A DNA stretch of 64,000 nt from an uncultured Lachnospiraceae bacterium (GTDB taxonomy: Bacteria; Bacillota; Clostridia; Lachnospirales; Lachnospiraceae): positions 13,054-77,053 of the forward strand of contig CAYLUV010000001.1 of NCBI GenBank assembly GCA_964386955.1, written 5' to 3'. Every line of letters begins with the position of its first letter. Within the stretch, counting starts at the first letter, position 1. Both the position numbers and the translations under genes were made by a program. Under the pieces are notes generated by a model. The model had not been told where the DNA came from. It worked only from the letters and a program-made list of their open reading frames with translations, and searched no databases. Positions 35,228 to 54,066 of the stretch are shown one piece after another.

Positions 35228-36703
35228 ATGGATAAAAAGGCTAGTTTATTGGATATGCTCCGAAAAGAGGGATACGAGATACCATCTTACTGCGGTGGTA
35301 AGGGCTTATGCGGCAAATGTAAGGTTCGATTCCAGAAGGAAGCGCCTATGGCAACAGAGCAGGAGCGGATATTTTTTTCAAAAGAGGAAATAGATGCGGG
35401 CTGGCGCTTGGCCTGTGAACAGGAAGAAGTAGAGATTAGCAATCTGGAAATTCCCCGTGCTGCAGACCATTCTATGATAGAAAAAAAAGAATATTGTCAG
35501 GAAGCAGACAGCGACATATGTGATATTGTGGTGGATATTGGTACCACCACAATAGGAGCGGCTAAGGTAGATCGAAAGAGTAAAAAGGTATTAAAAACCA
35601 TCACTTCCATGAATCATCAGAGAAGTTTTGGTGCCGATGTGATTTCCAGAATTGATGCTGCAAACCGGGGAAAAGGAAAAGAATTGCAGCAGTCTATTCA
35701 GAGGGATTTAAAGAATCTATTTCAGGAGATGGAGGCATGTGTGGGAGGAAATGAGAAATCCGCCATCGTGATTTCTTGTAACACTACCATGGGACATCTT
35801 CTGCAGGGATTTTCCTGTAAGGGATTGGGGGTTGCACCCTATCAAACAGGAGATATTTCGTTGCATACCTATGAAAAAATGATTATGCTGCCGGGAATCA
35901 GTGCATTTGCCGGAGCCGACCTTGTGAGCGGCATTGTGGCTGTGGGCATGCATAAGAAGGATGAAATTAGCATTTTGGTGGACGTTGGTACCAACGGTGA
36001 GATGGCAATCGGAAATAAGAACCGGATTTTGGTAGCATCCGCGGCAGCAGGACCAGCCTTTGAGGGCGGCAATATTAGCTGTGGTGTGGCTGGCATTCCC
36101 GGGGCAATCAGCGGCGTGGAATTTTTTTCCAACCCGTTGGAAGCGAAAGAATTCTCCCGTTCAGAGGAAAATATCCAGATTCGATTGGAAACGATACAGG
36201 GAAAAAGTCCCGTGGGAATCTGTGGAACCGGTGTACTCGAGACCGTCTACGAGCTTCGAAAGAAGAAGCTGATGGACGAGACCGGTTTACTGAAAAAAGA
36301 ATATTTTTCCAATGGATTTCCCCTTACGAAAGACATTTTCTTTACCATTGGAGATGTTCGACAGGTACAGGCGGCAAAATCAGCTATCCGCACAGGAATA
36401 GAGCTTTTGATAAAAGAGTACGGTGTGGATTACGAAGAAATCCATACGCTCTACCTTGCAGGAAGTTTTGGAGAGCACATGAACATTCGAAAGACCGTGG
36501 GAATTGGGCTTTTGCCGCAGGAATTAGAGCAAAAGACAGTGTCCCTGGGGAATACATCTCTGCTAGGTGGGATTCTTTACCTTACCGAACCGGAGCGCAG
36601 ACAGGAATTTGTAGAAACAGCAAATAGAGCAGAGGAAATCTTATTGGCAGAGCATAAGGATTTTCAGGAACTGTATCTAAAATATATGTATTTTCCGGAA
36701 TAA
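35228..36703 (+). CDS. 2Fe-2S ferredoxin-domain + ASKHA (DUF4445) protein, RACo-like corrinoid reductive activase family
   Basis: N-terminal plant-type ferredoxin Cys motif (YCGGKGLCGKCKV...WRLAC). ASKHA motifs DIVVDIGTTTIG and VDVGTNGEMAIG...AAAGPAFEGGNISCG. Confidence 0.8.
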   Translation: MDKKASLLDMLRKEGYEIPSYCGGKGLCGKCKVRFQKEAPMATEQERIFFSKEEIDAGWRLACEQEEVEISNLEIPRAADHSMIEKKEYCQEADSDICDIVVDIGTTTIGAAKVDRKSKKVLKTITSMNHQRSFGADVISRIDAANRGKGKELQQSIQRDLKNLFQEMEACVGGNEKSAIVISCNTTMGHLLQGFSCKGLGVAPYQTGDISLHTYEKMIMLPGISAFAGADLVSGIVAVGMHKKDEISILVDVGTNGEMAIGNKNRILVASAAAGPAFEGGNISCGVAGIPGAISGVEFFSNPLEAKEFSRSEENIQIRLETIQGKSPVGICGTGVLETVYELRKKKLMDETGLLKKEYFSNGFPLTKDIFFTIGDVRQVQAAKSAIRTGIELLIKEYGVDYEEIHTLYLAGSFGEHMNIRKTVGIGLLPQELEQKTVSLGNTSLLGGILYLTEPERRQEFVETANRAEEILLAEHKDFQELYLKYMYFPE

Positions 36704-36746
36704 AATATGAAAATATATCAATAAGGAAAATAGGAACAGATAAAGT

Positions 36747-36788
36747 CAATGATTTTTGCGACAATGCAAAAAATCATTGGCTTTTTTT
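36747..36788 (+). terminator. Strong rho-independent terminator after the RACo-like gene
   Basis: Perfect 11-bp stem CAATGATTTTT (36747-36757) / AAAAATCATTG (36769-36779), followed by T7. A second weak hairpin with a long T tract lies at about 36793-36840. Confidence 0.8.
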
Positions 36789-36927
36789 AAATTGAACAGA
36801 TAATCCAAAAGTGTTCTGTTTTTTTGTCCTTTTTTTTTCTAGAATGAAATTGACATATCAATAGCAAATAATAGTTTGCGGGTAAGTATGTGAATAAAAC
36901 GTGATATGAAAAAAGGAGGATAAAGTT

Positions 36928-37167
36928 GTGACTAGAGAAGAAGTATTAGCAAAAATGATTGAATTTGCAGCAAGAGCATTTAACAAGGAGGCAGAAGGGA
37001 TTACTGAAGATACTAACATTGCAGAAGAATTAGGTGTGGCATCAACACAGAGAGTTGCTATGAGTGCATCTATTGAAAATGATTTTGATGTTATGATTCC
37101 GGTTGCACGATTTGGAAAATTTGAGACAATCGGTGATCTTGTTAATTTTGTAATGGATGAAATGTAG
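36928..37167 (+). CDS. Stand-alone acyl/peptidyl carrier protein (PP-binding)
   Basis: A 79-aa four-helix ACP pattern. EELGVASTQRVAMSASIENDFDVMIP aligns to the ACP (E/D)LGxDSLdtVElvmalEeeFd..IP motif, with Ser in GVAS at the phosphopantetheine position. GTG start follows SD AAAGGAGG. Confidence 0.8.
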   Translation: MTREEVLAKMIEFAARAFNKEAEGITEDTNIAEELGVASTQRVAMSASIENDFDVMIPVARFGKFETIGDLVNFVMDEM

Positions 37168-37178
37168 GGAGAAATAAT

Positions 37179-38468
37179 ATGGTACATAACGTAAAACTTG
37201 GGAAAAATATGAGAAGTGTCTCCATTGTAGGAATCGGTGCAACTCCATTTTTTAATGGTGTAGAAAACAAAACCTATAAAGGATTAACAAATGGTGAACT
37301 TTTTGGTTATGCGTCGTTGGATGCCATGAAAGATGCAGGAATGGAACCTCGTGATGTGCAGTATTTCTTTCATGGGTCTGCTAACCCATATGTGTTAAAT
37401 AAAAGTATTACACCAAATTTACAGGTGGCTGATTGGTTTGGTATGAGAGGAAAAGGTTCTATTTCTCACTCAGAAGGCTGCTGTACAGGATATATTGCGT
37501 TGGAAGAGGCAGTATTTGCAGTTGCGAGTGGAGCATATGATATTGTGTTGACAGGCTGTAGTGAGCAGGGAACAGGTATGCCTGATGGTAACACACCAGC
37601 GCACATGCGTGTACCATTAACAACAGATATTTTGTTCCCAGATCTTGATTCTATCTTTGACCGTTCTTATGGAAGATTTCTTGGTGGTGGACCAGGCATG
37701 AATCATGATGATTGGATTAATTATTATGCAAAAGAAAACGGACTTACACCAGAGCAGATTGACGAAGTATTGGCACATCAGGCATATCATTTCAGACGTG
37801 CTGCAACGCTTTGCCCTCGAGCAATTAGAAGAACACCATATGAGCAGTTGGCAAAGGAAGCTGGTTATGACAATGTATGGGATTATATGAAATCTCCACA
37901 CAATCCTAAAATGACACAGTATTTAAGAACATCAAGTGATTCCTGCGTGGCAGATGGTGCTGCTGCTTGTATTGTTGTGCCTACAGAGATTGCAAAACAG
38001 TTTACAGATAAACCTATAGAAGTTTTAGCGATTGGATCTTCTGTATTGGATGCGATTGTTCCTCATTTAGAGAAAAAAGCAACAGCAGAAGCGGCACGTC
38101 AGGTATTTGAAATGACAGGTTTAACTGCAGATGATATGGATTTATTATACGTAAATGACTTTATTGGTTCTTCCGCTTTCCTCGCAGCAGAAGAAATTGG
38201 TTATCTTCCAAAGGGTGAAGGATGGAAATATGTATTAGATGGAAGAATTGCTTACGATGGAGATAAACCAATGAACACAAATGGAGGAAGAACATCGTAT
38301 GGTCATGCGTTTGCTGCATCCGGTATGGCAGATATTTTTGAAGCTGTTACACAGATGAGAGGAGAAGCAGGAGAACGTCAGATTAAGAAACTTCCAAAAT
38401 ACACTTTTATCCGTGGCTTTGGTGGAGCACAGAATGTGCGTGCGATTATTTTGAAATCAAATTTTTAA
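37179..38468 (+). CDS. SCP-x/nsLTP-type thiolase-like protein (DUF35-partner thiolase)
   Basis: Thiolase fold with Cys in SEGCCTGYIALEEAV and a C-terminal block NTNGGRTSYGHAFAASGMADIFEAVTQMRGEAGERQ, typical of SCP2-type thiolases. SD GGGAG is 7 nt before ATG 37179; an alternative ATG is at 37209. Confidence 0.85.
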   Translation: MVHNVKLGKNMRSVSIVGIGATPFFNGVENKTYKGLTNGELFGYASLDAMKDAGMEPRDVQYFFHGSANPYVLNKSITPNLQVADWFGMRGKGSISHSEGCCTGYIALEEAVFAVASGAYDIVLTGCSEQGTGMPDGNTPAHMRVPLTTDILFPDLDSIFDRSYGRFLGGGPGMNHDDWINYYAKENGLTPEQIDEVLAHQAYHFRRAATLCPRAIRRTPYEQLAKEAGYDNVWDYMKSPHNPKMTQYLRTSSDSCVADGAAACIVVPTEIAKQFTDKPIEVLAIGSSVLDAIVPHLEKKATAEAARQVFEMTGLTADDMDLLYVNDFIGSSAFLAAEEIGYLPKGEGWKYVLDGRIAYDGDKPMNTNGGRTSYGHAFAASGMADIFEAVTQMRGEAGERQIKKLPKYTFIRGFGGAQNVRAIILKSNF

Positions 38469-38494
38469 TGAAAGAATAGATAAGAGGTATTAGT

Positions 38495-38647
38495 ATGAGT
38501 GCTGAAAAGATAAAAGCAGAAGAATTTTGGAATCCAGAACATATTGTCGAGACATTTTGGAACGGATTAAAAGAAGGAGTTATCTACGCAAGAAAGTGCG
38601 AAGTATGGTCATGCGTTTGCTGCATCCGGTATGGCAGATATTTTTGA
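38495..38647 (+). pseudogene. Chimeric 50-codon ORF: DUF35 N-terminal 36 codons fused out of frame into duplicated thiolase 3' sequence
   Basis: ATG 38495 carries the same SD as the intact gene. The translation is MSAEKIKAEEFWNPEHIVETFWNGLKEGVIYARKCE then VWSCVCCIRYGRYF, with stop at 38645-38647. Confidence 0.8.
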
Positions 38648-38774
38648 AGCTGTTACACAGATGAGAGGAGAAGCAGGAGAACGTCAGATTAAGAAACTTC
38701 CAAAATACACTTTTATCCGTGGCTTTGGTGGAGCACAGAATGTGCGTGCGATTATTTTGAAATCAAATTTTTAA
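38603..38774 (+). pseudogene. Duplicated 3' fragment of the thiolase-like gene (last 56 codons + stop), without start or promoter
   Basis: Identical to 38297-38468. There is no in-frame upstream continuation. Confidence 0.85.
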
Positions 38775-38800
38775 TGAAAGAATAGATAAGAGGTATTAGT

Positions 38801-39238
38801 ATGAGTGCTGAAAAGATAAAAGCAGAAGAATTTTGGAATCCAGAACATATTGTCGAGACATTTTGGAACGGATTAAAAGAAGGAGTTATCTACGCAAGAA
38901 AGTGCGAAGAATGCGGTGAAATTGAATTTCCACCTCATATCGCATGCAATAATTGTGGCTATCATGAAACAAAGTGGACGACATTAACCGGTAAAGGACA
39001 GTTGAATACATTTGTATTTACTGGTGTAACCAATGCTAGATTAGAATTAGAAGAACGTGGACTTAAGTATGTCTGTGGAGAAGTTCAGTTGGATGAAGGT
39101 CCTGCTATTAATGCAGTTATTCTTGGCATTAATAAAAAGAAGGGGCGTGAAATTGAGCATAAACTTCCTTTGAGAGTGCGTCCAGTTTTTTATGATATGG
39201 GTAGATATACTACACTATTTTTTGAATTAGACGAGTAA
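38801..39238 (+). CDS. DUF35 protein (Zn-ribbon + OB-fold), thiolase partner
   Basis: Rubredoxin-like ribbon CEECGEIEFPPHIACNNCG, followed by an OB-fold region (GKGQLNTFVFTGV...CGEVQLDEGP). It is immediately downstream of the thiolase, as in archaeal thiolase/DUF35 and BbsAB-type pairs. Confidence 0.85.
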   Translation: MSAEKIKAEEFWNPEHIVETFWNGLKEGVIYARKCEECGEIEFPPHIACNNCGYHETKWTTLTGKGQLNTFVFTGVTNARLELEERGLKYVCGEVQLDEGPAINAVILGINKKKGREIEHKLPLRVRPVFYDMGRYTTLFFELDE

Positions 39239-39266
39239 TCGTGTTATAAAAACTGGAGGATTTGAA

Positions 39267-40271
39267 GTGAAGGTTTTAGAGCAAATTTATAGCAAAGCAA
39301 AAGAAAATCCGCAAAAAATCGCATTTCCAGAAGCAACAAATGAGAAGATGATGCAAGCTGCATATGAAACTGGAAAAGAAGGATATATCATACCGATTTT
39401 AGTTGGCGAAGCGGAAGAATTAAAAAAACTTGCACAGGATAGAGGATATGATTTATCTGTGTTCACTTTTGTCGATATCAATGAGGAAGAGTATAAAAAT
39501 CATCTTATTGCAGAATATGTAAAACAGCCAGATACAATGCTAAAAGAAAAAGCATTGGGCAGACGTATGCAAAATCCATTATATTATGCAATGGTAATGC
39601 AAAAAGTTGGTGAAGCAGATGTTACCTTTGCGGGGATTGATAATACAACAGGAGATGTTCTTTTAGCCGGACAGATGATCATTGGAATGAAGCCAGGAAT
39701 CAGCACAGTATCAAGTATTGGACTTGCAGACATTCCAGGTTATGAGGGAAGCGAAGGAACACTGTTGGCGATAGGAGACAGCGCTGTTTGTACAAATCCA
39801 AATGAGGAACAGCTTGCAAGTATTGCAATTTCTGCTTGTGATACAGTCCAGGAACTTCTAGGTTGGGAACCAAGATGTGCCATGGTTAGTTATTCTACAC
39901 TTGGAAGTGGTCAAGGTGAACTGATTGACAAAGTAAAAGCAGCCTTAAAAATTGCAAATGAACTTCGTCCAGACTTGGAGATTGATGGCGAGTTTCAGCT
40001 GGATGCAGCGATTGTACCTGAGGTTGCAGCTAAAAAAGTACAACGTGAGAGTCGCGTGGCAGGTAAAGCAAATGTACTTATTTGGCCAGATTTGAATGTT
40101 GGAAATACTGCGGTAAAACTGATCCAACAGTTTGGACATGCAGATGTATACGGTCCAATGCTGCAGGGCTTCAATAGTATTGTTTGCGATTGTTCCAGGG
40201 GAGCCCCAGTTTCAGAAATAAAGGGAAATATCGTAATTTCTGCTGCTCGTGCAGCAGGAAGCAAAAAATAA
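39267..40271 (+). CDS. Phosphate acyltransferase (PTA_PTB family; Pta-like, substrate unknown)
   Basis: A 334-aa protein with a Pta-like N-terminus (IAFPEATNEKMMQAAYETGKEGYIIPILVGEAEEL) and C-terminal blocks (YSTLGSGQGE; ANVLIWPDLNVGNTAVKL). GTG start follows SD TGGAGGA. Confidence 0.85.
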   Translation: MKVLEQIYSKAKENPQKIAFPEATNEKMMQAAYETGKEGYIIPILVGEAEELKKLAQDRGYDLSVFTFVDINEEEYKNHLIAEYVKQPDTMLKEKALGRRMQNPLYYAMVMQKVGEADVTFAGIDNTTGDVLLAGQMIIGMKPGISTVSSIGLADIPGYEGSEGTLLAIGDSAVCTNPNEEQLASIAISACDTVQELLGWEPRCAMVSYSTLGSGQGELIDKVKAALKIANELRPDLEIDGEFQLDAAIVPEVAAKKVQRESRVAGKANVLIWPDLNVGNTAVKLIQQFGHADVYGPMLQGFNSIVCDCSRGAPVSEIKGNIVISAARAAGSKK

Positions 40272-40292
40272 GATAGGTCTAAGTTAAAGGTG

Positions 40293-40913
40293 TTAGGTCA
40301 AAGGATATTCTATTAATTTAATTGCAGTATCACTGTATTCGTAACAGAGTGAAAGGATATGGCCTTGAGAAAGTGTTGACTGATAGCAGGCAACAGAACT
40401 GTCAGAACAAATGATATTCATGAGGTCTTTTGTTTGAGTAAAAGAAAAAGAGAAATCCTTCAAATTGGTATCAACACCTAAGCCGGATTTTTTTACATAG
40501 GCTTCCTTTAGTGTCCACAGGCGGTAGAACCACTCTTGTCTAAGCGGCAAAGTGGAGCCTGTACGCTGGAGGAAGTCTTTTTCTGTTTTGGACAAAGATT
40601 TTGTTATCAAGATTTCAGGAAAATAGCCTGGAAATTCTACATCAACACCAATGGATGCGGTGTCAAATGCACATGCTACAAGGCCATTGCAATGACTGAT
40701 ATTAAAAAATATGTCTAAATGTTCAGCCAAAAAGGGTTTTCCGTTGGAATCTTTTTTCAAAGCAGAATCAAGTTCTTTAAGAGAAAGTTCGATACCATAG
40801 ATATCTTTCAGTCCATGCAGAAGAAGTTCTCTGCCCAAGATATGTTCTTGATTACTGATAGATGATATGGTTGAGTCAACAGATGTATAATAAGTATAGT
40901 AAATAACTGGCAT
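40293..40913 (-). CDS. Sfp-type 4'-phosphopantetheinyl transferase
   Basis: Sfp-family motifs: KDSNGKPFL, FNISHCNGLVACAF, IGVDVE, FYRLWTLKEAYVKKSGLG. Confidence 0.85.
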   Translation of the reverse strand: MPVIYYTYYTSVDSTISSISNQEHILGRELLLHGLKDIYGIELSLKELDSALKKDSNGKPFLAEHLDIFFNISHCNGLVACAFDTASIGVDVEFPGYFPEILITKSLSKTEKDFLQRTGSTLPLRQEWFYRLWTLKEAYVKKSGLGVDTNLKDFSFSFTQTKDLMNIICSDSSVACYQSTLSQGHILSLCYEYSDTAIKLIEYPLT

Positions 40914-41007
40914 AAAAACTCCTTTTTATCAATGATGGTGATATTTATTATATCTATTATACATTATTTGTGGTGAAAATCATATAGAAAGAAATAAAGG
41001 TGAAGGT

Positions 41008-41811
41008 ATGTACTTGGAGAGAGAAGATGTTCGTTTATATTATGAAGTACATGGCGAAGGTGAACCGCTGTTACTTATTCATGGCGTGATAGTGGATTCT
41101 GATTTGTACCGACAAACAGCAAAATATTTGTCAAAATATTATCAAGTTATCACCTACGATAGAAGAGGAAATTCAAGAAGCACTTGTGAAAGAAAGTCAA
41201 AGTTCCACATAAAAGAGCAGACGGAAGACATATTGAATCTTATGGATGCTCTAGGGATAGACAAAATAAATATTGTCGGAAGTAGCGCTGGGGCAGTCAT
41301 TGGTCAGTATTTTCTTCAGGAATATCCGGATAGAGTTCGTCATCTGATTATGTATGAACCAGGTATGTTGGGACTTATGATGAATATAAGCGAGGAGTTT
41401 CGAGTATGGGTTGCCGAGATGGAAAAAATAATCAATAAAGGAAAATATAATATGGCACTACTCAAGTTTGCAGAACATATCGGCACATCAGATCCACGAA
41501 GCCCACAGAAGGAAGAGTCAGTATCCTTGCGTGAGATGGAAAATATAGAATACGCATTTAAGGTGGAAATACCAGGTTTAATTGCGTATCAACCAGATAT
41601 TGATCGGATGAAATTAGTTGCTGAAAAGATTACCATTGCTGCAGGCGAAAAGAGTGGTGATACAATGTATGTACAAATGTCCGCTTCATTAGCAAAACAG
41701 ATAGGGAAAGAAAATATCTTCTATCCAGGTGGCCACAATCTGCCTTATGATCTGCCGAAAGAGTTTGCAGTATGTGTTTTAGGCACGCTGATGCTTCAAG
41801 ATGAATGCTAA
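41008..41811 (+). CDS. Alpha/beta-fold hydrolase (possible thioesterase/esterase)
   Basis: HG oxyanion motif (LLLIHGVIVD), nucleophile elbow VGSSAGA and C-terminal GGHNLPYD. Confidence 0.8.
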   Translation: MYLEREDVRLYYEVHGEGEPLLLIHGVIVDSDLYRQTAKYLSKYYQVITYDRRGNSRSTCERKSKFHIKEQTEDILNLMDALGIDKINIVGSSAGAVIGQYFLQEYPDRVRHLIMYEPGMLGLMMNISEEFRVWVAEMEKIINKGKYNMALLKFAEHIGTSDPRSPQKEESVSLREMENIEYAFKVEIPGLIAYQPDIDRMKLVAEKITIAAGEKSGDTMYVQMSASLAKQIGKENIFYPGGHNLPYDLPKEFAVCVLGTLMLQDEC

Positions 41812-41815
41812 TATG

Positions 41816-42529
41816 CTAATTTTCAAGGGTGTTGTTGTTATCTAGTTGGCAGTTATCTTTTCTGATTTTCATTTTGAGGTCAAAGTCGGGATCGCAGCGT
41901 CGTTTATAACTGAGGTAACTGCCGCCGACCCTGGTTGTATTTAACAAATTTACAATTTCGTCAATAGGTAAAAAGTCATTTTCGTTATCCTCAATCCAGA
42001 GTTGTGCAGCTAACAAGTGCATCTCTAAAAAAAGGTGCACAAAAGGGGAACGCAATTCGTCTTTTGGTCGGCCATCACAATCCATCATATGATTGATATA
42101 TTCGGTTAAAATTTGTTTTACACGCTGAATAAAATAGGAATCCCCATTTTTTCGATCCAATAAGACTCTAATAGCTTTGTGGTGTTCTTTGCAAAATTCG
42201 AACCATGTCAAAAGCATTTCTGGTGGAGCGTAATCAAATTTGTCAATAAAATGTTCCTCTGGTATAACTGCGTAGGGAGCCTGATGGATATTCATGTATC
42301 TATTTGTAAGATCATCCAATAAAGAGGTTTCTAGGGATTCTATCAAATCATAAATATCATCATAATACTGATAGAAGGTTCCTCTTGTGATTTCAGCGTA
42401 TGCACAGAGTTCTTTTACAGATATCTTATCCCACTTCTTGTTAGTCATCAAATGCAGATAGGAATCAATTATTTTCTCTTTGGTTCGTGCAGATTTGCGA
42501 ATTTTCTTAGTTGCCGTTGTTTTTGTCAT
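41816..42529 (-). CDS. TetR-family transcriptional regulator
   Basis: N-terminal TetR HTH (KIIDSYLHLMTNKKWDKISVKELCAYAEITRGTFYQYY). Confidence 0.9.
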   Translation of the reverse strand: MTKTTATKKIRKSARTKEKIIDSYLHLMTNKKWDKISVKELCAYAEITRGTFYQYYDDIYDLIESLETSLLDDLTNRYMNIHQAPYAVIPEEHFIDKFDYAPPEMLLTWFEFCKEHHKAIRVLLDRKNGDSYFIQRVKQILTEYINHMMDCDGRPKDELRSPFVHLFLEMHLLAAQLWIEDNENDFLPIDEIVNLLNTTRVGGSYLSYKRRCDPDFDLKMKIRKDNCQLDNNNTLEN

Positions 42530-42589
42530 GAAGTGTCCCCTTTGTCAAATGATATTTAAATCATAAAATTAGTTTATCAAGATTATACA

Positions 42590-42604
42590 TGAAAAATTAT
42601 TTCA
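42590..42604. promoter_or_regulatory. Candidate TetR operator (TGAAAAATTATTTCA)
   Basis: A near-palindrome about 60 nt upstream of the TetR start. It shares ATTATTTCA and TGAAA with the site at 42801. Confidence 0.4.
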
Positions 42605-42800
42605 TATCAAGTTTGGAAATAAAAGTATATTGTACGACGCGAGAATGTTTTGCGCACGAAATATGTTAAATGATGGTACAATGACAACTGTGAATCCTAA
42701 TTAAATAAAAAAAATCTCATTTATTTTTGCCATATTAAAGCGGAAATAGTGAAGTTGAGGTGAAATAAAAAAATCGATATTCTTTTAACATAAAGACGCG

Positions 42801-42816
42801 TGAAATAATTATTTCA
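42801..42816. promoter_or_regulatory. Candidate TetR operator: perfect 16-bp palindrome TGAAATAATTATTTCA
   Basis: Exactly self-complementary. It lies 27 nt upstream of the flavoprotein ATG at 42843. Confidence 0.45.
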
Positions 42817-42842
42817 AAAAAATTAAATTGAAGGAGAAAAAA

Positions 42843-43805
42843 ATGGAGAAGAAAAAAGTTGTTGGATTTTCTTTTGGAAGAAAATTAAGTAATACGGAGA
42901 TTCTCATTAAAGAAGCTCTGTTGGAATGTGAAAAAGCAGGAATGGAAATTCAATTTGTTAGATGCGATGATTTGGATATTCATATTTGTACTGGATGCTG
43001 TAGCTGTGTGGCTGGATTAGCAATGTGCACAGGCAATGGATCCTGTATACATAAAAACGATGATTTTCCAATTATTCATGAAGCGTTGATGTCTGCAGAT
43101 GCAGTTATTGTTGGTTCACCTACCTATGTTTTGGCTCCTACAGGAAACTTTAAGAAGGTGTGCGACCGCCTTGGCCCTGCTCATGACATTACTTTTATCA
43201 AACCAGCAATTGAGGCGGGAAAACGAGAAGGAAGAGCACCGGAAACATATCCGGATGAGAGATTTTTGAAGAAGAGAGTAGCGGCTTTAATTACAGTTGG
43301 AGGAGCGAGAACAGAAAACTGGTTATCACTTGCTATGCCTAATATGTTTGAATTTACTTTATCTATGGACATGTCTGTGGTTGACAAATTACAATATCCT
43401 GCGGCTATGGATTATGTCAGTGTTATCGGAAGAGAAGATGTTTTAGAAAGAGCACGTAAAGTTGGACAGAACATTGCAGAAGCGGTAGTGGCTGAAACAG
43501 AAGAAGAAAGAGTGAGATACAGAGGAGACGAAGAAGGCGTCTGCCCAGTATGTCATGAAAAAATATTGACAATCACAGGTCCAGGCACAACGGTAGAGTG
43601 TCCAATTTGCGGTATTAAAGGAGAATTAGAAATCGTAGATGGAACAATTAAGGCAAAATTTTCAGAGGAAGAGATAAAACGTTCTCGTTTATTTGAAGCG
43701 GGAAAATGGGAACATTCTGATGAAATCAGAGATGGTCTTAGAACACAGAGAAAAGTGGAAAATCTTGCTGAAAAGAAGAAAAAATATATTGGCGTTGGTG
43801 AATAA
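42843..43805 (+). CDS. Flavodoxin-fold (FMN-reductase/iron-sulfur flavoprotein-like) protein with Cys cluster and C-terminal Zn-ribbon
   Basis: Isf/FMN_red-like features: VVGFSFGRK...; Cys-rich CTGCCSCVAGLAMCTGNGSC; VIVGSPTYV. C-terminal ribbon CPVCHEK...CPICG. ATG 42843 is 6 nt after AAGGAG; the ORF-track TTG is at 42828. Confidence 0.7.
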   Translation: MEKKKVVGFSFGRKLSNTEILIKEALLECEKAGMEIQFVRCDDLDIHICTGCCSCVAGLAMCTGNGSCIHKNDDFPIIHEALMSADAVIVGSPTYVLAPTGNFKKVCDRLGPAHDITFIKPAIEAGKREGRAPETYPDERFLKKRVAALITVGGARTENWLSLAMPNMFEFTLSMDMSVVDKLQYPAAMDYVSVIGREDVLERARKVGQNIAEAVVAETEEERVRYRGDEEGVCPVCHEKILTITGPGTTVECPICGIKGELEIVDGTIKAKFSEEEIKRSRLFEAGKWEHSDEIRDGLRTQRKVENLAEKKKKYIGVGE

Positions 43806-43819
43806 GAAGGGTGATGAAG

Positions 43820-45958
43820 ATGAAAGAGCAAGTGACAGTTTGGATCGACGGAAAACAGATACAAACTGAATATGGAAAACAGATGTTGGATGTGGCCTTA
43901 GAAAATGGAATCTACATACCTCATTTGTGCCATCATCCAGATCTGCCTGATATTGGCTCATGTCGCTTGTGTTTAGTACAGAAAGAAGGAAGTGATGATG
44001 TCATTCCGTCTTGTACATTAAAGGCAGAAGATGGATTAAAGATTACTACACAGAGCGAAAAAATACAGCAATATAGAAATTTGTCTATGGAATTGATTTT
44101 GGCAGCACATCCGGAAGATTGTTCTACTTGCCCTAAATATGGTAGATGTGAACTGCAAACATTAATTCAGTACATGGGTGTCTCAGCAATGCGAATGAGA
44201 ACCAGAACAAAAGGGTTTGCAAAAAATGAAAAGAATCCATTATATGTTCATGATATGACACGTTGTATATTGTGCGGTCGATGTGTGCGTGCATGCAAAG
44301 ACTTAAGAGGTGTTGGCGTTCTCCAGTATAACAGAGATGATATGGAAGTATATGTGGGGACAATTAAAGATAAGCTCTTAAAAGATAGCGATTGTCGGTT
44401 CTGCGGCGCGTGTGCAGAGGTTTGTCCGACAGGAACGATTAGAGATCTTATTAATTATACTCCGATTGAGAAAAAAGATGCCCTGGTTCCATGTCAAGCA
44501 ACATGTCCGATTCATACAGATATTCCTAGATATGTACGATTAGCAAAAGAAGGGAAATTTGATGAAGCAACGGCGGTTATCCATGAGAAATTACCATTTC
44601 CAGAGTGTTTGGGTCATGTATGCGCCCATACTTGCGAAGCGTCTTGTCGAAGAGGAGACGTAAATGAACCAATTTCTATTCGAAATATAAAACGTTATGT
44701 GGCAGAACATACAGATAATGCATTGTGGAAGAAAAATAGCAAACAGCTTCCAGCTACAGGGAAGAAGGTTTGTGTGGTAGGTGGTGGACCAGCGGGTATG
44801 ACAGCAGCATTCTATCTTGCAAAACAGGGACATGAAGTTGTTTTAAAAGAAGCAAATGCAGAATTAGGCGGTCAAATGCAGTATGGTATTCCTTCCTATC
44901 GTCTTCCTAGGGATACTGTTAAAAAAGAAGCAGCATATTTAGAAGATGTCGGTGTCAAGATAGAGAAAAACTGTCGCGTAGAAAAACCGGTAGATTTGTT
45001 AAACGAATATGATGCTGTTCTTATGGCTATTGGAACACATCAGGGTGTTCGCCTTTCCATGGAGGGAAATGATTTAGAAGGTACGTTGTTGAATGCAGAT
45101 TTCCTAAAAAATGCGTCCATGAATCAAGAAACTGGAATGGGAGAAAAAGTTGTTGTGTTAGGTGGTGGAAATGTAGCCTTTGACTGTGCAAGAACAGCAG
45201 TACGATTAGGCGCAAAAGAAGTACACCTTGCATGTCTAGAAAAGAGAGAAGCAATGTTGGCTGATGACGAGGAAATTGAACAAGCAAAAGAAGAAGGAAT
45301 TTTTATTTATCCTGGCAGAAATTTTGAAAAAATCTGTGGAGATACTTCTGTGACAGGTGTTCAGTTTAGCAAAATCAAGAGTTTTACATTTGATGAAAAT
45401 CGTCGTGCAATCATAGAAAAAGAAGATAATTCAGAGCATACAGTTGAATGTGATACAGTAATTTTTGCTGTAGGACAGAGAACTGCATTGGCTGAGGATT
45501 CTGGTTTGGAACGAGGAAGAGCAAATTCTATTGCAGTAAAAGAAAATAGCAAGGAAACAAATGTAGAAGGAATTTTTGCTTGCGGTGATGCAATCTATGG
45601 AACAAAAACAGTCATTCAGGCAGTAGCGTCAGGAAGAGAAGCGGCAACAGAGATTGACAGATATCTGGGTGGTGATGGAGACATTTCAGAAGTGCTTCTT
45701 CCAAGAGAGGAAGTGGATTCTAAGATTGGAAAAGTGGAAAACTTCGGATATCTGGAACGTGCAGAAGAACAATTTTTAGGCGCAGAGGAACGAAAAAAAG
45801 ATTTTAGACCAATTAGTGGTGGCATTTGTGATCAAGAAATTTGCAAAGAGGCAGGAAGATGTTTACAGTGTGATTTGAGATTTTCTATTACTGCACCACG
45901 AGTTTGGAGTGACTATACTGATCAGAACGAAAAGGAGGCCGCAGCAGATGTTAATTAA
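43820..45958 (+). CDS. Multi-cluster Fe-S / FAD NAD(P)H oxidoreductase: NuoG/HydA-type N-terminal domains fused to a GltD/NfnB-like module
   Basis: Motifs in order: 2Fe-2S (GSCRLCLV); His-Cys3 cluster (AHPEDCSTCPKYGRCELQ); two ferredoxin motifs (CILCGRCVRAC; CRFCGACAEVCP); GltD-type Cys motifs (CQATCP..., CAHTCEASCRRG); FAD Rossmann VCVVGGGPAGMTAA; NAD(P)H Rossmann VVVLGGGNVAFDCA. Start is ambiguous (GTG 43811, ATG 43814 or ATG 43820). Confidence 0.85.
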   Translation: MKEQVTVWIDGKQIQTEYGKQMLDVALENGIYIPHLCHHPDLPDIGSCRLCLVQKEGSDDVIPSCTLKAEDGLKITTQSEKIQQYRNLSMELILAAHPEDCSTCPKYGRCELQTLIQYMGVSAMRMRTRTKGFAKNEKNPLYVHDMTRCILCGRCVRACKDLRGVGVLQYNRDDMEVYVGTIKDKLLKDSDCRFCGACAEVCPTGTIRDLINYTPIEKKDALVPCQATCPIHTDIPRYVRLAKEGKFDEATAVIHEKLPFPECLGHVCAHTCEASCRRGDVNEPISIRNIKRYVAEHTDNALWKKNSKQLPATGKKVCVVGGGPAGMTAAFYLAKQGHEVVLKEANAELGGQMQYGIPSYRLPRDTVKKEAAYLEDVGVKIEKNCRVEKPVDLLNEYDAVLMAIGTHQGVRLSMEGNDLEGTLLNADFLKNASMNQETGMGEKVVVLGGGNVAFDCARTAVRLGAKEVHLACLEKREAMLADDEEIEQAKEEGIFIYPGRNFEKICGDTSVTGVQFSKIKSFTFDENRRAIIEKEDNSEHTVECDTVIFAVGQRTALAEDSGLERGRANSIAVKENSKETNVEGIFACGDAIYGTKTVIQAVASGREAATEIDRYLGGDGDISEVLLPREEVDSKIGKVENFGYLERAEEQFLGAEERKKDFRPISGGICDQEICKEAGRCLQCDLRFSITAPRVWSDYTDQNEKEAAADVN

Positions 45959-48728
45959 AAATGAAAATGCTTTGCAGATTGTGGACAACTTATCGCCTGA
46001 ACAGATTTATGAGTACATTAAGAATGTTCAAAATTATGGCAGTTACAAAGAATCATTGGCAGAGCTGATGAAAGAAAATCCACAGAAGAATCTTGTAGTC
46101 GCTTTGAATAACGATGATTTTGATGCCGTAGCCAACATACTTTTAGAGAAAAATCCAGAAGCAATTGTTGCTGGTATGAAGGCAGTAACGAAAGCACTAG
46201 AAATCAAGCAGCTTGTATGTGTAGTCAGAGATGAAAAATATGTAGATGAGTTACAAGATATTGCCAAGAAATATGGATTAAATCTGGACGTTGAAGTAGC
46301 TGATATTGTGGATATTAGAAAATATAAAGATAGCATGATGCTTCATATAGAAACTATGGCAGCCTATAGTGATGTGTTAATGGGCCAGACTCCAGGCGTA
46401 CTCTTGGCTGTTGACGACAGTGAACCGGTGGAAGTTCCATTTGGTACAAAATTATCGGAACTGTTAGGCGAAGAGGCAAAGGCATATAAAGTCAACCACG
46501 AATACTATGGCAGCGAATTTTATGAAAGTAGTGTGCAGGAAGGCGCAGCGTACGGAAGCGGAAGAATTTGTAAGATTTCTGATAAGCAATGTATGGTGTG
46601 CAATTGTCTAGAAGAGATTCATCACTTTAGAGAACAAACTTGTGGAAAATGTACATTTTGTCGAGAAGGATCCTATCAGTTGGAAGCAATTCTTCGAGAT
46701 ATTACAACAGGAAAAGCATCTAGTGAAGATACAAAGCTGATACAGGAACTTGGTGAGGCGATGCAGTCCTTAAACAATTGTTCTTTAGGTTGTGCAGCGG
46801 CTAAACCGGTAATCAGCATTCTCAATAATTTTGGTGAAGAAGTAGAAGAACATTTACAGAAGCATTATTGTAGATCAGAGCAATGTAAGGCGTTTATTAT
46901 GTACTACGTCGATTCTGCAAAATGTAAGGGATGTGGAACATGCCAGAAATCATGTCAGGTAAATTGTATTGATATGAAAAAAGGATACACAGCAGTGATT
47001 GATGAATTTGATTGTGAAAAATGTGGCGCATGTATGGAAGCTTGCCCGAATGGAGCTATAAAGAAAGCAAATGGAAGTAAGCAAAAGATCAATCAGAAGG
47101 CGGTAAGATTAAAAGGCGTTGCCCTTGAAAAAACTGACGCGAAGGAGCGAAAGAAAGTATCAAGAAAAGGCAGACACAAAACCAAAATTATGCCATTTAA
47201 ACCGGCAGAAAACGTAATGACCACAAAGGAAAACTTAAATCATGTTAAGGCTGAAAGTGAAAGGGGGCAAAATATGAAGAGACTGGAAACGGATGTAGTA
47301 GTAGTTGCCGGTGGTCCTGCGGGACTAGCAGCAGCAGTTACATTGGGCGAGCACGGTATTAAGAGTATTCTGTTTGAAAAATCCAATACTACAGGTGGCG
47401 CAGCCAACATGGGTATGGGACCATTGGGTATCAACACAAAGATTCAGAAACAGAATTTCAACAATGTCAGTGTTGATGAGGCGTTGGATATGCATATGAA
47501 ATATACACATTTCCAAGTAGATGCTGATTTGGTACAGACATATTTCCACAAGAGTGCAGATACCATCGAATGGCTTGAAAGTTTAGGCGTGGAATTTGCA
47601 GGTGCATATCGCTATTTCAAGGAATCTTACGCAACATGGCATATCGTGAAACCTGACAATGGTGTAATCGGACCAAGAGCAGCAGGAAAAATGGCCAGAA
47701 TTCTGACGGAAAAAGCAAAAGAGTATGGCACAGAGATTTACTTGGAAACAGCAGCAACGGATCTGATTTATGAAAATGATAAGGTTTGTGGTGTTATTGC
47801 GAAAGATAATGATGGAAATCTGATAGAAGCAAGAGCGAAAGCGGTAGTAGTTGCGACCGGTGGTTTTGGAAATAATAAAGAGATGATTAAGGAAGAATTT
47901 GGTCTTACTCTTGGAGAAGATTATTTCCCATTCCAGATTCCGGGATTAAACGGTGATGGACTTAAAATGATGTGGAATGTGGGGGCCAAGAAATTTGGAA
48001 CTAACATCGAAGCGATTTATCAGTTACCGGACAATGCCACATGGTCAATCCTTGATGCTGTTTTAAGACAACCGAATTTGTTGATTAACCAATTTGGTGA
48101 TCGTTTTATGAACGAAGGTGACATGGGGAATACAACGCATACAGGAAATGCGATTCATATGCAGCCTGGAAATTATGCATACTGTATTATGGATGAAGGA
48201 ATTTTAAAAGAATATAAGAGAAATGGTCCAGATTTGATTGATTTGGTACATTCTCCAACTGCTGTGGATGAATTTGACGAAGTTGCGGCAAAAGCGGTAG
48301 AACAGGGATACGGAGCATATTTTGAAGCAGAATCAATCGAAGAATTAGCAGAAAAACTTGGTATTGATGAAGATAAACTTCAGGATACCATCGATGAATA
48401 CAATGAAATGTGCGAAGTTGGTGTGGATAGTAAATTCCACAAGAGTCAGAAGTTTTTACATCCAATTACAGGAAAAGGAAAATATTTGGTTGGAAAATTC
48501 TATCTTGGCGCGTATGGAACTTTGGGCGGTGTAAGAATCAATAAGTACTGTGAAGTATTGGATGAAGATTTATTGCCGATTGAAGGACTGTATAGTGCGG
48601 GTACAGATGCAAATACTATTTATGGCGACAGTTATAATTTTAATTTACCAGGCAATAGCATGGGATTTGCAGTTAATTCAGGACGTATGGCGGCAGAGGC
48701 AATTGCAGATTATCTAGATACTATGTAA
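45948..48728 (+). CDS. Fusion: degenerate NuoF/HydB-like domain with [4Fe-4S] motif + 2x[4Fe-4S] ferredoxin + FAD_binding_2 (fumarate-reductase/KstD-family) reductase
   Basis: The NuoF-like block lacks the usual Gly-rich FMN/NADH motifs (LVVALNNDDFDAVANILLEKNPEAIVAGM) but keeps CGKCTFCREG...NNCSLG. The ferredoxin motifs are CKGCGTCQKSC and CEKCGACMEACP. A Lys-rich linker follows, then FAD dinucleotide motif DVVVVAGGPAGLAAA, VVVATGGFGNN and GLYSAGTDA. ATG 45948 (SD AAAGGAGG) overlaps the upstream stop. Confidence 0.85.
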   Translation: MLIKNENALQIVDNLSPEQIYEYIKNVQNYGSYKESLAELMKENPQKNLVVALNNDDFDAVANILLEKNPEAIVAGMKAVTKALEIKQLVCVVRDEKYVDELQDIAKKYGLNLDVEVADIVDIRKYKDSMMLHIETMAAYSDVLMGQTPGVLLAVDDSEPVEVPFGTKLSELLGEEAKAYKVNHEYYGSEFYESSVQEGAAYGSGRICKISDKQCMVCNCLEEIHHFREQTCGKCTFCREGSYQLEAILRDITTGKASSEDTKLIQELGEAMQSLNNCSLGCAAAKPVISILNNFGEEVEEHLQKHYCRSEQCKAFIMYYVDSAKCKGCGTCQKSCQVNCIDMKKGYTAVIDEFDCEKCGACMEACPNGAIKKANGSKQKINQKAVRLKGVALEKTDAKERKKVSRKGRHKTKIMPFKPAENVMTTKENLNHVKAESERGQNMKRLETDVVVVAGGPAGLAAAVTLGEHGIKSILFEKSNTTGGAANMGMGPLGINTKIQKQNFNNVSVDEALDMHMKYTHFQVDADLVQTYFHKSADTIEWLESLGVEFAGAYRYFKESYATWHIVKPDNGVIGPRAAGKMARILTEKAKEYGTEIYLETAATDLIYENDKVCGVIAKDNDGNLIEARAKAVVVATGGFGNNKEMIKEEFGLTLGEDYFPFQIPGLNGDGLKMMWNVGAKKFGTNIEAIYQLPDNATWSILDAVLRQPNLLINQFGDRFMNEGDMGNTTHTGNAIHMQPGNYAYCIMDEGILKEYKRNGPDLIDLVHSPTAVDEFDEVAAKAVEQGYGAYFEAESIEELAEKLGIDEDKLQDTIDEYNEMCEVGVDSKFHKSQKFLHPITGKGKYLVGKFYLGAYGTLGGVRINKYCEVLDEDLLPIEGLYSAGTDANTIYGDSYNFNLPGNSMGFAVNSGRMAAEAIADYLDTM

Positions 48729-50134: not shown

Positions 50135-50170
50135 TAATTTGTAACAAAGGAAAATGAAAGGATGAAGGGA

Positions 50171-51274
50171 ATGAAGGCATATAAAGTTTTTACAGTAAAT
50201 CCGGGATCCACATCAACCAAAATTGCATTATTTGAGGGAAGTGAAAAAGTTTTTTCTGCAAATGTCAGTCATGATGCAAAAGTACTTGCTCAATATGGTA
50301 CGATGAAGGAACAACTTGATTACAGAAAAGAAACAATTGAGAAGTTGTTAAAGGATAATGAAGTTGATTTAAATGGACTGGATGCCTGTGTCGGAAGAGG
50401 TGGCGGCCTTTTAGCAATGGAGGGTGGAACTTACGAAATAGATGATTTAGTTTTGACACATTCTCTTCATTGCGCAAATGGTGTTGTACATCCAGCTAGT
50501 TTAGGGCCAAGCATTGCCAAAGAGTTCGGAGATGCATATGGTGCAAGATCCTTTGTAGTGAATCCACCGGATGTGGATGAGCTGCAGGATGTTGCTAGAA
50601 TGACGGGAATTAAAGGTGTTTACCGTGTGATTCATTTGCATGCCCTAAATCTAAAGGAAACAGCTATTCGCCATGCAGAAAGTATTGGAAAGAAATATGA
50701 AGAATGCAACTTTATAGTATGTCATATTGGTGGTGGTATTTCTATATCCGCCCATCGCAATGGTAAAATGATAGATGGATTTGACATTGTTGGTGGAGAA
50801 GGACCGATAGCTCCTACAAGATGTGGCAGCATCTCTGTCGCAGATTTGTTAAGATATTGCGAAGGAAAAGACATAAAGAGTGTGAAGCAGCTGTGCACTA
50901 AAAATGGTGGTTTTGTGAATCATCTAGGTATTTCTGATGCAATTGAGCTGACAGAGCGTGCAGAAAAGGGAGATAAGTATGCGGAGATGCTCTGGAATAC
51001 GATGATATACCAGATTGAAAAGTGCATTGGCTCTATGGCTGCAGTGCTAAAAGGCAAGATTGATGGAATTTTACTTGGCGGTGGAATGGTTCATAGCCAA
51101 GATATGGTAAATCAGATTAAAGATGCCTGTAGTTGGATAGCACCAGTAACTGCTTACCCAGGCGAGTTTGAGATGGAAGCCATGGCATCTGGCGCTTCCA
51201 GGGTGCTTGCTGGTGAAGAAAAAGTAAAGAGATATGAAGGAGTTTGTATCTTTCAAGGATTTGACTTTGAGTAA
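50171..51274 (+). CDS. buk: Butyrate (short/branched-chain acyl) kinase
   Basis: Buk N-terminus YKVFTVNPGSTSTKIALFE, CHIGGGISISAH and ASKHA acetate/butyrate kinase blocks. ATG 50171 or 50162. Confidence 0.9.
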   Translation: MKAYKVFTVNPGSTSTKIALFEGSEKVFSANVSHDAKVLAQYGTMKEQLDYRKETIEKLLKDNEVDLNGLDACVGRGGGLLAMEGGTYEIDDLVLTHSLHCANGVVHPASLGPSIAKEFGDAYGARSFVVNPPDVDELQDVARMTGIKGVYRVIHLHALNLKETAIRHAESIGKKYEECNFIVCHIGGGISISAHRNGKMIDGFDIVGGEGPIAPTRCGSISVADLLRYCEGKDIKSVKQLCTKNGGFVNHLGISDAIELTERAEKGDKYAEMLWNTMIYQIEKCIGSMAAVLKGKIDGILLGGGMVHSQDMVNQIKDACSWIAPVTAYPGEFEMEAMASGASRVLAGEEKVKRYEGVCIFQGFDFE

Positions 51275-54054: not shown

Positions 54055-54066
54055 GAGGCAGTTACG

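Follow-up and report, generated by a model that had tools for sequence, protein, structure and literature searches.

A carrier protein encoded with a thiolase/DUF35 pair, a phosphotransacetylase-like enzyme and a butyrate kinase homologue: a candidate CoA-independent acyl-transfer module from an uncultured Lachnospiraceae bacterium

To our knowledge, among well-known systems only FakAB/PlsX turns free acid, acyl-phosphate and acyl-acyl carrier protein (acyl-ACP) into one another, and PlsX is a fold relative of the phosphotransacetylase Pta. PhlC and MucB, thiolase-like subunits of DUF35 complexes, keep the CxS and GHx motifs and have lost HDxF; they carry an acetylated cysteine and reversibly make and break C-acyl bonds on phloroglucinol, 1,3-dicarbonyl or tetramic-acid scaffolds (PMC12960953). 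Here, we analysed a stretch of 64,000 nucleotides from an uncultured Lachnospiraceae bacterium (assembly GCA_964386955.1, contig CAYLUV010000001.1, positions 13,054 to 77,053), called the window below, in which genes for an ACP, a thiolase and its DUF35 partner, a Pta-like enzyme and a phosphopantetheinyl transferase (PPTase) stand together, with a butyrate kinase (Buk) homologue further downstream. A coupling of the ACP, the Pta-like enzyme and Buk is likely. We further propose, tentatively and at somewhat less than an even chance, a carrier-protein-centred acyl-transfer module working without coenzyme A (CoA), in which thiolytic cleavage in catabolism would load an acyl group onto holo-ACP, and acyl-phosphate and then ATP would be formed from it. 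The family assignments, the attachment serine, the thiolase cysteine and histidine and the arginine loss of the Pta-like enzyme were read from the sequence, and the linkage of the genes from comparative genomics; from these we infer every catalytic step, its direction and the nature of the substrate.

Pfam and NCBIfam searches found all of the genes named in the first-pass annotation, in place or within a few bases of it. The ACP of 79 amino acids (36928-37167, plus strand; Pfam PP-binding, E = 1e-7, 32.5 bits against a cut-off of 20.8) is followed on the same strand by an SCP-x/archaeal-type thiolase of 429 amino acids (37179-38468; Thiolase_C_1, E = 1.8e-33, with Thiolase_C and Thiolase_N also matched), its DUF35 partner subunit (38801-39238; zf-ChsH2 and OB_ChsH2_C, a Cys4 zinc ribbon and an OB fold) and the Pta-like enzyme (39267-40271; PTA_PTB, E = 3e-85, 287 bits). 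The PPTase gene (40293-40913, minus strand; 206 amino acids, Pfam ACPS PF01648, E = 4e-13) is convergent and lies 21 nt from the stop codon of the Pta-like gene. The Buk homologue (50162-51274, plus strand), an acyl kinase of the butyrate kinase family about 9 kb downstream, passed the curated butyrate kinase models (TIGR02707, 369 bits against a cut-off of 289; NF002834, 408 against 222), confirming that the window holds a Buk. Pfam scans of all other large open reading frames of the window detected no fatty acid synthase of type II (FAS-II), polyketide synthase (PKS), nonribosomal peptide synthetase (NRPS), acyl-CoA ligase or CoA-transferase, which upholds the same statement of the first-pass annotation. 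A fragment of a FAS or PKS system was ruled out, because the window has no partner genes for it.

The serine in the 'LGVAST' sequence of the ACP aligns with Ser36 of E. coli AcpP and is invariant across 74 distinct module ACPs, in which the usual Asp before the attachment serine is replaced by Ala, Lys or Gly. The protein falls outside the AcpP group by score and gene context: it scored below all NCBIfam cut-offs for ACPs of fatty acid synthesis (TIGR00517 and related models; best 47 against 66 bits), and no fab genes are present in the window. The PPTase is of the Sfp type by its domain and size, with AusB, HetI and AcpT-like proteins as the best NCBIfam matches.

At E ≤ 1e-10, more than 1,200 relatives of the thiolase were found, of which the closest named ones are from Mediterraneibacter faecis, Blautia and other Lachnospiraceae. 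One genome per species was scanned with a thiolase alignment, which gave 374 relatives; the best 80 loci were fetched, and their neighbouring genes were mapped with phmmer. Module counts refer to the 42 modules of this thiolase-selected set that are flanked by 5 kb or more on each side. The DUF35 gene was adjacent to the thiolase gene and followed it in all of them (42/42), and the ACP gene was adjacent in 41. Within 10 kb, an ene-reductase was found in 35 modules, a Pta-like gene in 27, a PPTase of the Sfp or AcpS type in 23 and Buk in 20. The PPTase is Sfp in some loci and AcpS in others, and this substitution argues for selection on the priming of the ACP itself. A dedicated ACP, primed by its own PPTase and serving as partner of the thiolase/DUF35 pair, is partly supported, with strong comparative and sequence evidence for it. 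The module recurs in about 80 thiolase-selected genome loci, which cover three phyla, and in about 40 metagenome loci selected by the Pta gene, and the combination is far beyond chance. The first-pass annotation had made its proposal depend on such recurrence, and the co-localisation is indeed conserved across phyla, in the 42 modules and in both sets of loci.

Two clades of modules differ in gene order. In clade a, whose thiolases are 81-92% identical to that of the window, the order is ACP-thiolase-DUF35, and the hosts are many Lachnospiraceae genera. Members at 87% identity were also found outside this family, in Absicoccus of the Erysipelotrichaceae (L026) and in Anaerovoracaceae (L034/L035), and this identity across families, and possibly orders, suggests recent horizontal spread among gut bacteria. 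In clade b (53-58% identical), thiolase, DUF35, ACP, Pta and Buk form a contiguous operon in Lachnospiraceae, Erysipelotrichaceae, Clostridium caldaquaticum, Anaerolineales (Chloroflexota) and Collinsella (Actinomycetota). M. faecis (L001) has two sets, thiolase-DUF35-ACP-DUF1097-Buk-Pta and PPTase-ACP-thiolase-DUF35-MFS-OYE reductase (MFS, major facilitator superfamily; OYE, old yellow enzyme). Its Buk gene directly precedes the Pta-like gene, and this pair follows one of the two sets; its proteins are 78% (Pta), 68% (Buk) and 57% (TetR) identical to those of the window. In another locus (L063), a single Buk-Pta pair stands between two ACP-thiolase-DUF35 sets. Minimal operons of TetR, thiolase, DUF35, ACP, Pta, Buk and MFS genes also exist, and TetR regulators are recurrent across the module loci. 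Other arrangements were observed as well. In L002, an insertion sequence (rve) separates the Pta gene from that for TetR. Collinsella phocaeensis (L080, 9995-20506) has two ACP-Pta-Buk sets on opposite strands in a stretch of less than 10 kb, with two FLR-like genes (FLR, flavone reductase) and a three-part reductase alongside. Many clade-b operons (L001, 4470-4979; L086, L088-L092, L103 and L113) encode a DUF1097 membrane protein, placed either between the genes for ACP and Buk or directly behind the latter; it may be a transporter for the acid product or the substrate.

The Pta-like enzyme belongs to a distinct subfamily. It did not reach the cut-offs of the Pta models (TIGR00651, 276 against 310 bits; NF007233, 247 against 311) or of the Ptb model (TIGR02706, 69 against 410). 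It matched PTA_PTB only and not the FA_synthesis domain of PlsX, so that a resemblance to PlsX would hypothetically be functional, not familial. A housekeeping Pta was rejected on the basis of these scores and of a canonical Pta that coexists near the module in L015. In the numbering of the Pta from M. thermophila, assigned by alignment, the catalytic Ser309 and Arg310 are kept, and Asp316 is replaced in all module-linked members by Glu, the acidic residue also present at this position in E. coli EutD. Arg87 is lost, with 'VKQPDTM' in place of 'YELRKHKG', and so is Arg133, with 'DVLLA' in place of 'DTLRP'. Both arginines are absent from all 46 module-linked Pta homologues of the genome loci and from all 43 metagenome homologues classed as arginine-less, and both are kept in five solved Ptas/EutD, in 27 canonical metagenome Ptas and in the canonical Pta of L015, which lies 9 kb from the module. 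Arg28, Lys212 and Arg287, which are basic and invariant in canonical Ptas, are also replaced in the module-linked subfamily. Iyer and Ferry are said to have found in 2001 that Arg87 binds the 3'-phosphate and Arg133 the 5'-phosphate of CoA. The two residues are located in a CoA-binding site ('site 2'), where acetyl-CoA is bound in the crystal structure from P. gingivalis, and their mutation mainly alters Km (PMC6461089).

For the converse test, metagenome contigs were scanned with an alignment of the Pta-like proteins, and 80 loci from 85% down to 35% identity were obtained, in which the subfamily and ordinary Ptas were mixed. All of the hits with at least 281 bits were without both arginines and had Glu316. 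The Pta-selected loci included about 40 arginine-less Ptas and, where flanks exist, an ACP, a PPTase and a true Buk are nearby; hits with 'ELRKxKG/DTLRP/SRD' had an acetate-kinase-like gene alongside and no ACP. An ACP or PPTase gene was found within 4 kb of 14 of the 17 arginine-less Ptas versus 1 of the 16 canonical ones (Fisher p = 1.3e-5, which is only indicative, as the loci are not phylogenetically independent and the counts overstate the statistical support). The split of the two groups by ACP/PPTase adjacency was nearly clean, and it is the strongest evidence pointing to the carrier protein as the probable thiol substrate of the subfamily. The suggestion of the first-pass annotation, that the Pta-like enzyme and Buk could link acyl-carrier protein, acyl-phosphate and free acid, gains support from this correlation of arginine loss with ACP/PPTase adjacency. 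Two further loci have an ACP and an AcpS near the Pta, together with a kinase that scores as acetate-kinase-like, not as Buk: in L131, both arginines are kept ('ETRRKRG/SVIRA', with 'SRD'), and L154 has arginines in the Arg87 region and Gln at position 133 ('RRKN/SVIQA', with 'SRD'). They are possible evolutionary intermediates.

These data bear on one alternative, that an ordinary CoA-dependent thiolase/DUF35 pair and a phosphotransacylase/kinase pair are encoded here, and that the ACP and PPTase have a function unrelated to them and stand beside them through inheritance. Every characterised thiolase/DUF35 system has a CoA substrate or donor, a Pta mutated at Arg87 or Arg133 remains active (PMC6461089), and many of the loci are from related Lachnospiraceae. 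However, the ACP is adjacent in 41 of the 42 modules, in three phyla and in differing gene orders, and the arginine loss tracks ACP/PPTase adjacency even in loci chosen via the Pta gene alone. Some AcpS-Pta-Buk-ACP operons have no thiolase at all, the window has neither a CoA ligase nor a CoA transferase, and a canonical Pta occurs 9 kb from the module in L015. We consider this alternative very unlikely.

The enzyme beside the ACP is variable. In 13 of the Pta-selected loci (L098, L099, L100-L102, L106, L114, L116-L118, L124, L126 and L142), mostly from sediment, soil and peat metagenomes, a CocE/NonD-type serine hydrolase of about 575 amino acids (Peptidase_S15 and PepX_C) is encoded directly beside the ACP, along with AcpS, an arginine-less Pta and Buk, for example in the order ACP-S15-Pta-Buk-AcpS in L098. 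No thiolase was seen in most of them; L100 and L101 have the thiolase/DUF35 pair in addition. The constant unit is therefore the ACP, the PPTase, the Pta-like enzyme and Buk. Both CocE/NonD enzymes and thiolases work via acyl-enzyme intermediates, which fits a variable cleavage enzyme feeding the constant ACP/Pta/Buk unit. The window also encodes an alpha/beta-hydrolase (41008-41811, plus strand; Abhydrolase_1, PcaD/MenH/BphD-like by Pfam and NCBIfam), whose homologues are paired with the PPTase or lie directly upstream of the ACP in L008, L017, L020, L054 and L087. From locus to locus, this place is taken by hydrolases of four different Pfam families, consistent with an accessory role of the window enzyme, possibly as a thioesterase or as a C-C or ester hydrolase.

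The window thiolase has the sequences EGCCTG, VNDFI and YGHAF, and the corresponding signature E[GA]CC[TS]G in the nucleophile region, xNDF, [YF]GHA and RG[FY]GG is common to 93 of 95 distinct thiolases of the modules. In the alignment, Cys101 corresponds to the catalytic cysteine of 7YVY and 6ESQ, and G375-H376 is invariant, which places the protein in the thiolase superfamily. The HDxF motif is not present: 93 of the 95 distinct module thiolases have N326-D327-F328 where 7YVY, 6ESQ, 4YZO and BbsB carry HD, and archaeal ACATs and SCP2-thiolases have HDxF. The best PDB relatives are archaeal ACAT (7YVY, 6ESQ), BbsB and PhlC, the HMMER alignment to PhlC covering only its C-terminal part. The relatives of the DUF35 protein in PDB are the DUF35 subunits of thiolase and aldolase complexes, and its sequence has the CxxC...CxxC pattern. 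A third subunit resembling hydroxymethylglutaryl-CoA synthase (HMGS) or ketoacyl synthase III was not found in the window, nor among the conserved neighbour clusters of about 82 loci. The PhlC/MucB complexes need an HMGS-like subunit, so that the window enzyme falls outside their group, and their chemistry would by analogy be a precedent for the cleavage of 1,3-dicarbonyls by the window thiolase family. A metagenome locus (L120, 10806-16996) has AcpS, an arginine-less Pta, ACP and Buk together with two thiolases of the HDC/GHP (SCP2-like) type; the NDF/GHA signature is absent from these, and ACP linkage therefore does not require NDF.

The thiolase and DUF35 genes of the window are separated by 333 nt, and this 'gap' derives from a perfect tandem duplication of 306 bp that the first-pass annotation did not report (38297-38602 and 38603-38908, 100% identity). 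The duplicated unit spans the 3' end of the thiolase gene, the intergenic ribosome-binding site and the first 108 nt (36 codons) of the DUF35 gene, and it leaves a dead remnant between two intact genes, consisting of a frameshifted DUF35 fragment of 36 codons and a copy of the thiolase tail. Two independent contigs (L167 and L168), 99.6-99.96% identical to the window, do not have the duplication, which is therefore either particular to this strain or an artefact of assembly.

Buk is the last gene of an operon divergent from a TetR-family regulator (41816-42529, minus strand; Pfam TetR_N, weak). The operon begins with an FLR homologue of the FMN_red family (42828-43805, plus strand), followed by a two-protein Fe-S flavoprotein reductase of 715 and 939 amino acids (43811-48728, plus strand; Pfam and NCBIfam) and a GPH cation symporter (48755-50134, plus strand; Pfam MFS_2; NCBIfam gph, 364 bits against a cut-off of 231). 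The only PDB match of the FLR homologue was the flavone reductase of Flavonifractor plautii (7D38-7D3B; E = 6.7e-37 over its full length, residues 10-319 against 2-292), consistent with membership of the FLR family. 7D38 is the structure in the FLR paper, in which a homologue from C. ljungdahlii was validated at 29.7% identity and e-33 (PMC7862272), and the match of the window protein is comparable by sequence to that of this homologue. The 715-residue protein combines an N-terminal Fe-S part resembling NuoG with an NAD(P)H/FAD module resembling GltD. In the 939-residue protein, an N-terminal Fe-S part resembling NuoF is joined to a FAD_binding_2 catalytic domain with kinship to the vinyl-phenol reductase VprA (317 bits against a cut-off of 600 for the VprA model); elsewhere this fusion is split into a FAD_binding_2 protein of about 490 amino acids and a NuoF-like protein of 210-400 amino acids. 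The components follow Buk in clade-b operons of Anaerolineales (L067-L069) and are upstream of the thiolase in Collinsella (L080). The multi-component reductase appears uncharacterised.

A companion block follows on mixed strands (51337-59407; Pfam), encoding a PRD/EIIA regulator (minus strand), a class II aldolase-family protein, an iron-dependent alcohol dehydrogenase (Fe-ADH), an MFS_1 transporter, a D-2-hydroxyacid dehydrogenase and an OYE-type Fe-S flavin reductase of 673 amino acids. Such a block lies beside ACP-thiolase-DUF35 in 20-32 loci. The best PDB match of the OYE protein was 2-naphthoyl-CoA reductase, and the BaiCD and BilR models were matched below their cut-offs; the NCBIfam scores of the OYE protein, the 2-hydroxyacid dehydrogenase, the class II aldolase and the Fe-ADH were all below cut-off, so that no substrate could be deduced from them. 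Recurrent neighbours across the loci include VprA-like and OYE reductases, a GPH transporter, the C-glycoside deglycosidase beta subunit (PF19906) with a TIM-barrel alpha partner, Gfo/Idh/MocA oxidoreductases, ThuA, FGGY kinases, GH3, AraC-GH39, feruloyl-type esterases, carboxylesterases, SnoaL-like proteins and a metallo-beta-lactamase-fold protein. This catabolic context of the polyphenol type, with FLR, ene-reductase and glycoside genes, had not been reported in the first-pass annotation, and it points to a probable role in the catabolism of plant polyphenol glycosides, although some of the pattern may stem from common descent among Lachnospiraceae. No homologue of Phy or CHI was seen in the window. 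Bile-acid or steroid side-chain cleavage, prompted by the BaiCD-like OYE protein and the Ltp2/ChsH2-like thiolase and DUF35 proteins, was judged unlikely, since the module also occurs in Anaerolineales and in hot-spring, soil and sediment bacteria, beside glycoside and polyphenol genes. Catabolism of a keto-sugar after C-deglycosylation was considered as a role of the companion block and was set aside, as no role for the thiolase was found in it.

A RACo-type reductive activator of corrinoid enzymes is encoded directly upstream of the ACP (35228-36703; Pfam), with no methyltransferase or corrinoid-protein gene adjoining it in the window. The first 28 kb are housekeeping, with a tRNA synthetase, polyphosphate kinase and teichoic-acid synthesis. 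A promoter and terminator scan of 36600-43000 gave counts not above those of shuffled sequence.

The neighbouring genes also bear on a biosynthetic role, in which an acid would be activated via Buk and the Pta-like enzyme onto the ACP, and thiolase/DUF35 or CocE/NonD would C- or O-acylate an acceptor in a Friedel-Crafts/Claisen-type reaction, and so make a specialised metabolite or modify a polyphenol. Secondary metabolism typically has stand-alone ACPs with an Sfp-type PPTase of their own, the biosynthetic C-acyltransferases PhlACB and MucABC belong to the thiolase/DUF35 type, and a SnoaL-like cyclase gene is found beside Pta or Buk in about 10 loci. The surroundings are nevertheless importers, glycosidases, sugar-catabolic genes and substrate-responsive regulators (PRD/EIIA, TetR and CdaR) rather than tailoring or export genes; no PKS, NRPS, FAS or HMGS-like partner is present; and the clade-b gene order matches cleavage, carrier, phosphorolysis and kinase. 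A biosynthetic role is thus clearly unlikely.

In the catabolic reading that we prefer, imported glycosides of flavonoid-type polyphenols would most likely be converted to a 1,3-dicarbonyl intermediate by the FLR homologue and the Fe-S flavin ene-reductases. The PPTase would convert the ACP to its holo form. The thiolase/DUF35 heteromer would then use its active-site cysteine to cleave a C-C bond of the 1,3-dicarbonyl and would pass the acyl group to the phosphopantetheine thiol of the ACP. The Pta-like enzyme would act as an acyl-ACP:phosphate acyltransferase, releasing acyl-phosphate and free holo-ACP, and the Buk homologue would pass the phosphate on to ADP, so that ATP and the free acid are formed. 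The ACP would thus be a recycled, protein-bound stand-in for CoA in substrate-level phosphorylation. The minimal operons make sense in these terms as import, cleave, make ATP. Our own rough thermodynamic estimate suggests that the cleavage of beta-diketones could pay for ATP, and so could that of cyclic 1,3-diones, for instance the reduced rings of phloroglucinol or resorcinol. More generally, and with greater reserve, we put forward as a possibility a CoA-independent substrate-level phosphorylation in anaerobes of gut, sediment and soil, in which thiolase/DUF35 (at a C-C bond) or CocE/NonD (at an activated C-O bond) would acylate holo-ACP from a polyphenol-derived compound, and a new subclass of the Pta fold together with Buk would yield ATP.

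Several points weigh against this proposal. Acylphloroglucinols such as phloretin are marginal by the same rough estimate, and ordinary esters are unfavourable; since the latter cannot pay for ATP, the CocE/NonD variants are hard to explain catabolically unless their substrates are activated esters. Enzymes of the PhlC type need the HMGS-like third subunit, which is absent here. No Pta or Buk gene was found within 10 kb in 15 of the 42 modules, where these genes could be elsewhere in the genome, as they are for the second M. faecis module. Mutation of Arg87 or Arg133 is not lethal to Pta activity (PMC6461089), so their loss suggests a changed thiol substrate without proving it. The polyphenol context is associative only, the class II aldolase, Fe-ADH and FGGY kinase look like deoxy-sugar metabolism, and the companion block may be present through inherited gene order among related Lachnospiraceae. 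Finally, the direction of flux is unreadable from sequence.

The last point leads to the main rival, which is possible but rather doubtful. Buk would phosphorylate an imported acid, the Pta-like enzyme would load the acyl group onto holo-ACP, and the ene-reductases and thiolase/DUF35 would act on the tethered thioester, for instance by reduction of an enoyl or aryl-carboxyl thioester and then thiolysis of a beta-ketoacyl-ACP, with exit via the Pta-like enzyme and Buk recovering the ATP. This activating direction would be a short-chain analogue of FakAB/PlsX, which is known as a route from acid via acyl-phosphate to acyl-ACP in Firmicutes. The evidence for the ACP/Pta-like/Buk coupling is symmetrical as to direction, and the OYE protein of the window resembles enzymes that act on CoA thioesters (2-naphthoyl-CoA reductase, 334 bits; FadH, 224 bits; BaiCD model, 466 bits). 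AcpS-Pta-Buk-ACP sets with a reductase and no thiolase within 8 kb were found in L114, L116-L118, L124 and L126; however, the thiolase-less loci all have a CocE/NonD hydrolase beside the ACP and are therefore not simply for activation and reduction. A conserved hydratase or 3-hydroxyacyl dehydrogenase that could supply beta-ketoacyl-ACP was not found, a free beta-keto acid would have to be the substrate of minimal operons with only thiolase, DUF35, ACP, Pta, Buk and MFS genes, and FAD_binding_2 reductases of the VprA, urocanate and fumarate types usually act on free compounds.

If the catabolic proposal is correct, the module would contain the first thiolase/DUF35 enzyme working with a carrier protein instead of CoA, and a new functional subclass of the Pta fold with the loss of Arg87 and Arg133 as its signature. 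Carrier proteins would then be recycled cofactors in energy-conserving catabolism, beyond biosynthesis. It would also give a role to genes labelled 'acetyl-CoA acetyltransferase', 'phosphate acetyltransferase' and 'butyrate kinase' in Lachnospiraceae that are common in the gut, among them Mediterraneibacter, Blautia, Dorea and Extibacter, and the present labels would mislead predictions of butyrate and acetate pathways from metagenomes. In public annotation, module genes appear as thiolase or 'YhfS'. The breakdown of flavonoids in the gut, for which the known enzymes are hydrolytic ones such as Phy, would gain an energy-conserving step, and through the link to FLR and C-glycoside deglycosidase the question of how gut bacteria draw energy from flavonoids in the diet can be put to the test.

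Literature searches turned up no account of an ACP with thiolase/DUF35 and Pta/Buk and, in line with the first-pass annotation, no characterised pathway holding a carrier protein and such a thiolase; the Catenibacillus and FLR papers do not mention the module genes. The known systems share single features with the module. Archaeal thiolase/DUF35 complexes, namely the acetoacetyl-CoA thiolase/HMG-CoA synthase/DUF35 complex and the KT/DUF35 fatty-acid synthase complex, have the same thiolase subfamily and DUF35 scaffold and are the closest PDB relatives (7YVY, 6ESQ), but they are strictly CoA-dependent, explicitly ACP-independent and biosynthetic, with extra partner enzymes and a conserved HDxF. 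PhlACB and MucABC have in common with the window pair an acyl-cysteine thiolase-like subunit, a DUF35 subunit and the loss of the His of HDxF; they differ in being tripartite with an HMGS-like subunit, in using acetyl-CoA as donor, in their biosynthetic function and in having no ACP, Pta or Buk. Pta-AckA and Ptb-Buk share the folds and the chemistry from thioester and phosphate via acyl-phosphate to ATP, with Ser309 and Arg310 kept in the window enzyme, whereas their thiol carrier is CoA and the window subfamily, without Arg87, Arg133, Arg28, Lys212 and Arg287, is linked to ACP and PPTase. FakAB/PlsX consists of PlsX and Fak proteins of the DegV/Dak type, not of PTA_PTB and Buk families, and works with long-chain fatty acids and the housekeeping AcpP in phospholipid synthesis. 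The ACP subunits of citrate lyase and malonate decarboxylase are, as proposed here, dedicated carrier proteins whose thiol is recycled in catabolic C-C cleavage, but they carry 2'-(5''-phosphoribosyl)-3'-dephospho-CoA attached by CitX/MdcG-type enzymes, and neither a thiolase nor phosphorolysis is involved. The Phy (phloretin hydrolase) and 2,4-diacetylphloroglucinol (DAPG) hydrolase step has the same FLR/ene-reductase pathway context and the same bond type, the C-C bond of an acyl-phloroglucinol, although Phy is a hydrolase of an unrelated family and no energy is conserved; that the module replaces Phy is pure hypothesis. The architecturally closest known system is the two-component BbsAB of anaerobic toluene degradation, likewise an SCP-x-type thiolase with a DUF35 zinc-ribbon/OB protein and no HMGS-like subunit, which in catabolism cleaves a C-C bond adjacent to an aromatic ketone by thiolysis. 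BbsB can be aligned over the whole of the module thiolase profile (103.7 bits), but BbsAB uses CoA thioesters and free CoA, keeps HDxF and has no ACP, PPTase, Pta or Buk partner; the sequence identity is low, and the NCBIfam BbsB and BbsA scores of the window proteins are far below cut-off. By this comparison, thiolase/DUF35 enzymes and Pta/Buk phosphorylation, both known, appear to be rewired around a carrier protein in an apparently undescribed module.

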